NCBI RefSeq assembly: GCF_044324875.1
Contig: NZ_CP172185.1
Direction: 5' to 3' (one strand)
Source: Escherichia coli
GTDB lineage: Bacteria > Pseudomonadota > Gammaproteobacteria > Enterobacterales > Enterobacteriaceae
Length of the DNA stretch: 64,000 nt
Shown in pieces: positions 24,506 through 24,542 of the stretch. The notes under the pieces are model-generated. The model ran no database searches. It had not been told where the DNA came from and saw only the letters and a list, made by a program, of their open reading frames with translations. A program made the translations under genes and the position numbers. Numbering within the stretch: the first letter of the stretch is position 1; each line of letters starts with the position of its first letter.

Positions 24506-24542
24506 TTGAAATAAGCGTAATGGTTACTATAGTAAACATTAC
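24506..24542 (+). promoter_or_regulatory. candidate promoter (TTGAAA-N17-TAGTAA) overlapping a 26-bp near-perfect palindrome GTAATGGTTACTATAGTAAACATTAC (24517-24542); putative operator of the toxin-antitoxin operon
   Basis: Palindrome read directly (24 of 26 positions symmetric), 16 nt upstream of the toxin start codon. Confidence 0.5.

Follow-up and report, generated by a model that had tools for sequence, protein, structure and literature searches.

A predicted autoregulatory operator at the promoter of a HigB2/HigA2-type toxin–antitoxin operon in Escherichia coli

It is textbook knowledge that antitoxins repress their own promoters by way of palindromes. In modules of the HigB2/HigA2 type, the toxin cleaves mRNA in a ribosome-dependent manner and is neutralized by an antitoxin whose N-terminal region is disordered when free and folds upon the toxin. 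Among the closest described relatives of the module analyzed here, V. cholerae HigA2 protects 24 bp of DNA containing the inverted repeat TGTACGC-N5-GCGTACA, from past the −35 element across the −10 element; one dimer is bound and the interaction is repressive (PMC11006873). A. baumannii HigA2 and the HigA2–toxin complex also repress their own promoter (PMC5906591), and the papers on the A. baumannii and IncC higBA systems contained no operator sequence for comparison. Outside this family, the controller proteins of restriction–modification systems recognize the C-box, with the consensus GACTnnnAGTCnnnnGACTnnnAGTC, which accommodates two dimers at a spacing of 15 bp and on roughly opposite DNA faces (PMC2504287). 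In the case of MqsA, a C-terminal XRE dimer binds AACCT-N3-AGGTT.

We analyzed a 64,000-nt stretch of E. coli DNA (the window; contig NZ_CP172185.1) in which a near-perfect 26-bp palindrome had been noticed in front of a putative toxin gene. A repeat finder confirmed this element as an inverted repeat (I3) at 24517–24542, consisting of GTAATGGTTACTA followed directly by TAGTAAACATTAC (GTAATGGTTACTATAGTAAACATTAC in full); it is referred to below as the predicted operator. The two arms (24517–24529 and 24530–24542) abut without a spacer and are 92% complementary. Twelve of 13 pairs can be formed, i.e. 24 of 26 positions are symmetric as originally described, and the sole mismatch is G24523 versus A24536. 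The span of 24506–24542 given in the original prediction does contain the palindrome, but it also takes in a −35-like hexamer at 24506–24511. To estimate the chance expectation, we counted palindromes with zero spacer, 13-nt arms and no more than one mismatch. An analytical estimate from base composition gave 0.04 such palindromes per 64-kb window, and dinucleotide-preserving shuffles gave 0.08 per window, with 5 of 60 shuffles containing one. As only 0.04–0.08 were expected, the palindrome at 24517–24542 is not a chance occurrence. The window contains four such palindromes in total, one of the others being a hairpin 3′ of the antitoxin gene.

Two palindromes elsewhere in the window were recorded as well. 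A perfect 26-bp palindrome, CTGCATGGTTATGCATAACCATGCAG, is situated at 56577–56602, 10 nt 3′ of an rhtA-like ORF and about 140 nt 5′ of a dps-like ORF, and may serve as a terminator or bind a protein. Another 26-bp palindrome, TCGATCGGTTAATATTAATCGATCGA, has one mismatch and lies at 538–563, directly downstream of a 375-aa methyltransferase-like ORF on the minus strand.

A promoter scan identified a sigma-70-like promoter, TTGAAA-16 nt-TATAGT (24506–24533, plus strand), with 10 of 12 matches to consensus; ahead of the toxin gene there was no other strong promoter of this type. TTG was also enriched at the position equivalent to the −35-like hexamer TTGAAA in 32 homologous loci. The −10 hexamer TATAGT (24528–24533) is located at the center of the dyad, and its TATA constitutes a 4-bp linker between two dyad units. 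The overlap with a −10 element that had been proposed is therefore real, and the relationship is closer than overlap since the −10 forms the dyad center. The proposed distance of 16 nt to the toxin start requires a small correction, as the −10 hexamer ends 24 nt and the palindrome 15 nt ahead of the toxin ATG at 24558. A Shine–Dalgarno-like AAGGA was read from the sequence at 24546–24550 (plus strand), 7 nt ahead of this ATG. From the position of the −10, transcription is predicted to start at approximately 24540–24541. We also considered a divergent promoter that would use the palindromic −10 on the minus strand; this candidate was rejected because no −35-like hexamer was present at the mirrored position.

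The toxin gene extends from 24558 to 24944 on the plus strand and encodes a 128-aa protein that was assigned to the HigB2/PF06296 family by Pfam, profile searching and comparison of AF2 folds. The Pfam match to PF06296 was full-length (6.9e-33, 113.8 bits, cut-off 27). HigB2 is listed among the names for PF06296 toxins in a survey of the RelE/ParE superfamily (PMC11980606). A profile built from 20 toxin homologues found V. cholerae HigB2 as its best match in the PDB (E 0.0035), and the AF2 model of the toxin (pLDDT 83) gave only HigB2 structures (5jaa_D, 5ja8) as top fold matches. The similarity to 5jaa_D was moderate (E 2.7e-4, TM 0.47/0.57). A phmmer search of the PDB with the toxin returned no match even at E values up to 1, and NCBIfam contained no model matching it.

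The antitoxin gene (24934–25263, plus strand) shares 11 nt with the toxin gene and encodes a 109-aa HigA2-like protein with an N-terminal helical region and a C-terminal XRE-type HTH. The coordinates of both genes and the description of the second product as an HTH protein were as given in the original prediction. The HTH was matched by Pfam HTH_3 (1.9e-9). In the AF2 model (pLDDT 90.5), helices at residues 4–17 and 23–43 were predicted with high confidence, a prediction that has no bearing on the free state of the N-terminal region. The best fold match was the C-terminal domain of V. cholerae HigA2 (5j9i), which superimposed at 1.3–1.5 Å over 61 residues (TMt 0.80), and HigA2 was also matched by sequence, at E 6e-4 with the single protein and 2e-5 with a profile. 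The next fold neighbors of the HTH domain were C.Kpn2I, the P22 c2 repressor and MqsA. Membership of the antitoxin in the MqsA family was considered and rejected, as the protein has zero cysteines, and hence lacks the zinc domain, and scored below the cut-offs of both family models (47.1 versus 61.8 for TIGR03830; 20.6 versus 30 for PF15731). Judged from these sequence matches and structure models, the gene pair is a genuine toxin-first type II module of the HigB2/HigA2 family.

Promoter, both genes and the downstream hairpin are contained in a strain-variable segment of about 1 kb (24338–25328) that replaces the 46-bp rimO–dgcI spacer of K-12. Of 5426 complete E. coli genomes, 1128 (about a fifth) carry the module, always between rimO and dgcI. 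The predicted operator is internal to the inserted segment, approximately 180 bp from its left edge. Relatives of the module were found across the Enterobacterales and on plasmids. Conjugative ones from Providencia and Moellerella carried such relatives, as did other plasmids from Xenorhabdus and Erwinia. Literature searches returned no paper for the RefSeq protein accessions, nor for the combination of rimO, dgcI and toxin–antitoxin. The hairpin, TTAGTACCCCTT-GATT-AAGGGGTACTAA (25292–25319), has a near-perfect 12-bp stem, is flanked by the antitoxin and dgcI genes, which are convergent, and takes the place of a different hairpin in the K-12 spacer. It has no clear T-run and was not called by a terminator scan; it is probably a bidirectional terminator that arrived with the module.

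Within E. coli, polymorphism is uninformative on operator constraint, since the most divergent allele examined had 12 differences in 1041 bp, none of them in the operator, where only 0.3 would be expected. One further copy of the E. coli module, with 100% protein identity and with the operator included, was found on a 1198-bp stretch of a contig that binning had assigned to a Collinsella sp. MAG (L002); this is most likely an E. coli binning contaminant and not a real actinobacterial copy. The dgcI gene next to the module (25333–25752 and 26606–27889) is interrupted by an insertion at 25875–26572, which we take to be IS1 from its InsA- and InsB-like ORFs on the minus strand. Because the insertion splits dgcI, which is an intact 1329-bp gene in other carrier strains, functional DgcI is probably absent from the source strain.

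Conservation of the dyad was examined across homologous loci. Antitoxin homologues were collected, 28 of them were aligned, and 55 loci were taken from contigs representing one genome per species; a toxin gene was located directly upstream of the antitoxin gene in most of these. The same dyad was found at the same distance 5′ of the toxin gene in 32 distinct loci, mostly from Enterobacterales, with toxin identities as low as 34%. The 80 nt preceding the toxin gene could not be aligned between genera except for CGTAA-N3/4-[T/G][T/A]ACTATAGT[A/C][A/T]-N3/4-TTACG. When the 32 operators were stacked, information was concentrated in GTAA at −13 to −10 (1.2–1.8 bits), in a block from −5 to +6, and in TTAC at +10 to +13 (1.0–1.8 bits). 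A lesser TTG peak was observed at the −35, and information was close to 0 bits elsewhere, including the flanks. Nearly all of the homologous loci have ACTATAGT or ACTATAAT at the −10. The stack was anchored on CTATA[GA], such that the central 5–6 bp are conserved partly by construction while the outer arms are unaffected; conservation of the central block is also what a −10 requires. The conserved blocks are mirror-symmetric and exceed the needs of a promoter in the GTAA of the spacer, the AC 5′ of the −10 and the TTAC near +1.

Mirrored positions also varied together. At ±5, where T:A is exchanged for G:C, 23 of 32 operators were complementary compared to 16.1 expected (permutation p 0.002), and co-variation was likewise detected at ±9 (p 0.007) and ±15 (p 0.014). 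These p-values are optimistic because the loci are related and their independence is overstated. A leave-one-out weight matrix was then scanned over both strands of each ~5-kb locus. The top match fell at the toxin promoter in all 32 cases, with scores at the operators that were mostly 22–42 bits and a best runner-up of no more than 10.5. The scan gave no site at five other loci of the family (L049, L007, L020, L044 and L054).

Two loci were instructive with respect to the protein that the site serves. In Silvania confinis (L043, 2440–2818) and Xenorhabdus khoisanae (L046, 2454–2794), the toxin gene has been cleanly lost and the operator has been kept, with a solitary antitoxin gene following some 30 nt downstream. 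Retention of the site after toxin loss ties the operator to the HTH protein, and these orphan antitoxins are presumably still self-repressing. In the aligned loci, the recognition-helix segment SVSKWER was invariant in 31 of 32, the copy from L056 being truncated ahead of the segment, and this invariance parallels that of the near-invariant GTAA/TTAC half-sites. A change in the recognition helix that tracks the inner half-sites (TTAC/GTAA versus GAC/GTC) was also sought, and no clean protein–DNA co-variation was found. K75V together with an ‘ESKPN’ loop was rejected as a tracker, as the fit was approximate and L008, L009, L026 and L035 break the rule.

Decayed toxin genes were observed at five loci (L012, 2057–2481; L042; L040; L013; L035), where split tblastn matches and failed translations revealed stop codons or frameshifts; those of L012 and L042 are pseudogenes with stop codons. 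The operators of these loci are intact or slightly damaged, L012 having a 3-bp central deletion. These sequences suggest that toxin decay is frequent in the HigB2/HigA2-like family.

Because the dyad overlaps the core promoter of the operon and is conserved with the module, we predict that it is the autoregulatory operator of a HigB2/HigA2-type toxin–antitoxin operon, and we assign this reading a probability of roughly 0.85. The proposal that the antitoxin or the toxin–antitoxin complex binds here was already part of the original prediction, and it is supported on comparative grounds throughout, namely by conservation, symmetry and promoter overlap. The most obvious alternative is that the promoter itself is what has been conserved, i.e. 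a −10 with favored flanks in which symmetry is incidental and to which no repressor is bound. TATAGT and TATAAT are indeed good −10 elements and the best-conserved part of the site, and anchoring of the stack adds to their apparent conservation. However, sigma-70 promoters do not conserve a GTAA in the spacer, a TTAC at +1 or an AC just 5′ of the −10, the mirrored blocks change together, and the site stays with the HTH gene once the toxin is gone. We consider this explanation very unlikely. Recognition by some other DNA-binding protein, such as a host regulator, a recombinase or a nuclease, has nothing specific in its favor apart from the module being a strain-variable insertion. A site that lies well inside the inserted segment, and that accompanies the toxin–antitoxin genes into many contexts, plasmids included, with its distance to the toxin start unchanged, makes such a target highly improbable.

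An RNA function was weighed in the same manner. Once transcribed, the dyad could fold into a hairpin and act as an attenuator, terminator or processing site, whether within the toxin leader or in transcripts reading through from rimO. The predicted fold was weak by comparison with shuffled sequences (−7.6 kcal/mol, z −0.69; 43 of 200 shuffles folded equally well), no T-run follows the dyad, and most of the dyad is upstream of the predicted start site. Moreover, conservation extends to the sequence of the arms and is highest in the would-be loop, which is the reverse of the usual pattern for an RNA stem. A role as an RNA hairpin thus has a negligible likelihood.

If the palindrome is the operator of the module, it would begin 5 bp past the −35, end near +2 and be centered on the −10. 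The C-terminal XRE HTH dimer of the antitoxin would read the GTAA/TTAC half-sites, and the bound antitoxin, alone or together with the toxin, would exclude RNA polymerase sterically. Steric exclusion is the natural mechanism to propose because the E. coli site shares its promoter position with those of autorepressing relatives. Loss of the antitoxin would then lead to derepression of the operon.

The dyad can be divided into two 11-bp units, each of which is a 4-3-4 palindrome and an exact match to GTAANNNTTAC. The left unit, GTAA-TGG-TTAC (24517–24527), lies in the promoter spacer, and the right unit, GTAA-ACA-TTAC (24532–24542), lies over the last bases of the −10 and the predicted start. 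TATA joins these GTAA-N3-TTAC units in E. coli and the nearer relatives, and their centers are 15 bp apart. In three separate lineages (L006, L014/L015 and L048), only the left unit has been kept, as a perfect palindrome, and the central dyad has been destroyed. Retention of the left unit alone favors the 11-bp unit as the element that is bound. Thus, of the single 26-bp site in the original prediction, the dyad is real but probably comprises two adjacent 11-bp sites. Within the operator model, site comparison and analogy with the operators of the C-box controller proteins and of MqsA, both fold neighbors of the HTH domain, lead us to lean slightly toward two antitoxin dimers per operator. A clade containing Pantoea, Erwinia, Pectobacterium and Kosakonia fits two units less well, since its inner half-sites are GAC/GTC, which makes the 11-bp units poor palindromes, and the 26–30-bp dyad is nevertheless kept.

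The same clade bears on the alternative that a single antitoxin dimer sits on the palindrome at the center (TTAC-TATA-GTAA; GAC-TATA-GTC in other genera), with the outer GTAA/TTAC contacted by something else, for instance a higher-order complex or, in the ‘fuzzy’ manner of V. cholerae HigA2, the N-terminal region. V. cholerae HigA2 binds its single repeat as one dimer, with the N-terminal region adding affinity (PMC11006873), conservation within the site is highest in the central block, and the GAC/GTC clade has kept the overall dyad and not the sub-dyads. On the other hand, the lineages with a perfect left 4-3-4 unit have no central dyad for such a dimer to bind, the near-invariant outer GTAA/TTAC resemble base-specific readout by a folded element, and central conservation is due in part to the −10 and to anchoring. 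Binding of one central dimer is accordingly unlikely in our estimation. A more speculative extension of two-dimer binding, which we regard as doubtful, is that the enterobacterial HigA2 branch exchanged a one-dimer operator for a two-dimer, C-box-like operator in which the linker is the −10, and that the antitoxin might moonlight on single core-genome CGTAA-N3-TTACG sites, comparable to the action of MqsA at promoters other than its own. If this were true, a two-dimer operator would provide cooperative, switch-like repression with a different tuning by the toxin:antitoxin ratio.

A perfect copy of the single-unit consensus, CGTAAGTATTACG, with the arms GCGTAA/TTACGC, was observed at 55489–55501 in the ompX–rhtA intergenic region. 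This site belongs to the core genome and is present in 5422 of 5426 genomes, including K-12 and strains without the module; the module is therefore not its source. The site might be an off-target of the antitoxin or a coincidence. Outside the operator, GTAA-N3-TTAC was matched in the window at 30943, 46162 and 55490, the last match lying within this intergenic copy. All three were treated as coincidence, since two are in long ORFs and the third is in a core-genome intergenic region. When one mismatch was allowed, the number of GTAA-N3-TTAC matches in the window was not above chance.

Our analysis provides an unstudied toxin–antitoxin module with a concrete, comparatively supported predicted operator and a family consensus, CGTAA-N3-KKACTATAGTMM-N3-TTACG. 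Because antitoxin autorepression through palindromes is textbook material, no new principle is involved; what is new is the operator of this module, its consensus and the divergence within the family. The generic type II systems with paired palindromes, such as O1/O2 of Proteus HigA and those of YefM–YoeB, resemble the E. coli module in that antitoxin-bound palindromes lie over their own promoter, whereas the protein families and operator sequences differ. Likewise, E. coli mqsRA is a toxin-first module with N3-spaced promoter palindromes, and the C-terminal domain of MqsA has weak sequence similarity to the antitoxin analyzed here and a similar fold (3fmy, rmsd 1.8 Å). However, MqsA has an N-terminal zinc-binding domain with CxxC pairs and MqsR as its partner, and the gene pair analyzed here has neither.

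The C-box is the closest parallel in geometry. In the C.Esp1396I tetramer–DNA complex (PDB 3clc) the arrangement is 4-3-4-4-4-3-4, or 26 bp, as in the E. coli dyad, and this correspondence holds only in the E. coli-like clade. The controller proteins are also similar to the antitoxin, C.Kpn2I being fold match 8 in rank (rmsd 2.1 Å, 33% identity), and a controller protein was also matched by profile at E 6e-6. In contrast, the C-box half-sites are GACT/AGTC and not GTAA/TTAC, and TATA is found within each unit, whereas it is between the units in E. coli. C-box operators, which overlap the −35, mediate activation as well as repression, while nothing but repression would be expected of the E. coli site, given its position over the spacer, the −10 and +1. 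Restriction–modification genes are linked to the C-box systems; the E. coli module has rimO and dgcI as neighbors and no such genes adjacent to it.

By protein family the nearest relative is V. cholerae higBA2 (PDB 8a0w/8a0x), which agrees with the E. coli module in the families of both proteins, as judged from Pfam and fold matches, and in the toxin-first order. Its operator likewise begins after the −35 and covers the −10, with an inverted repeat that an XRE HTH dimer recognizes. The operators themselves are different. The V. cholerae operator is a single 19-bp repeat of 7-5-7 form, and the E. coli site does not have this form, differing from it in sequence, length and sub-structure: its dyad of 26 bp is 7 bp longer, with GTAA/TTAC half-sites arranged in two units. 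The proteins differ correspondingly, with an identity of about 28% in the HTH domain. The HigA2 residues that contact bases, R68, E71, N72 and R77, align with E76, S79, K80 and E85 of the E. coli antitoxin, such that all four differ. The HigA2 family thus contains operators of divergent architecture, a single 19-bp repeat in V. cholerae and a 26-bp double unit in E. coli, and this divergence should be useful for studying the evolution of repressor–operator specificity and cooperativity.
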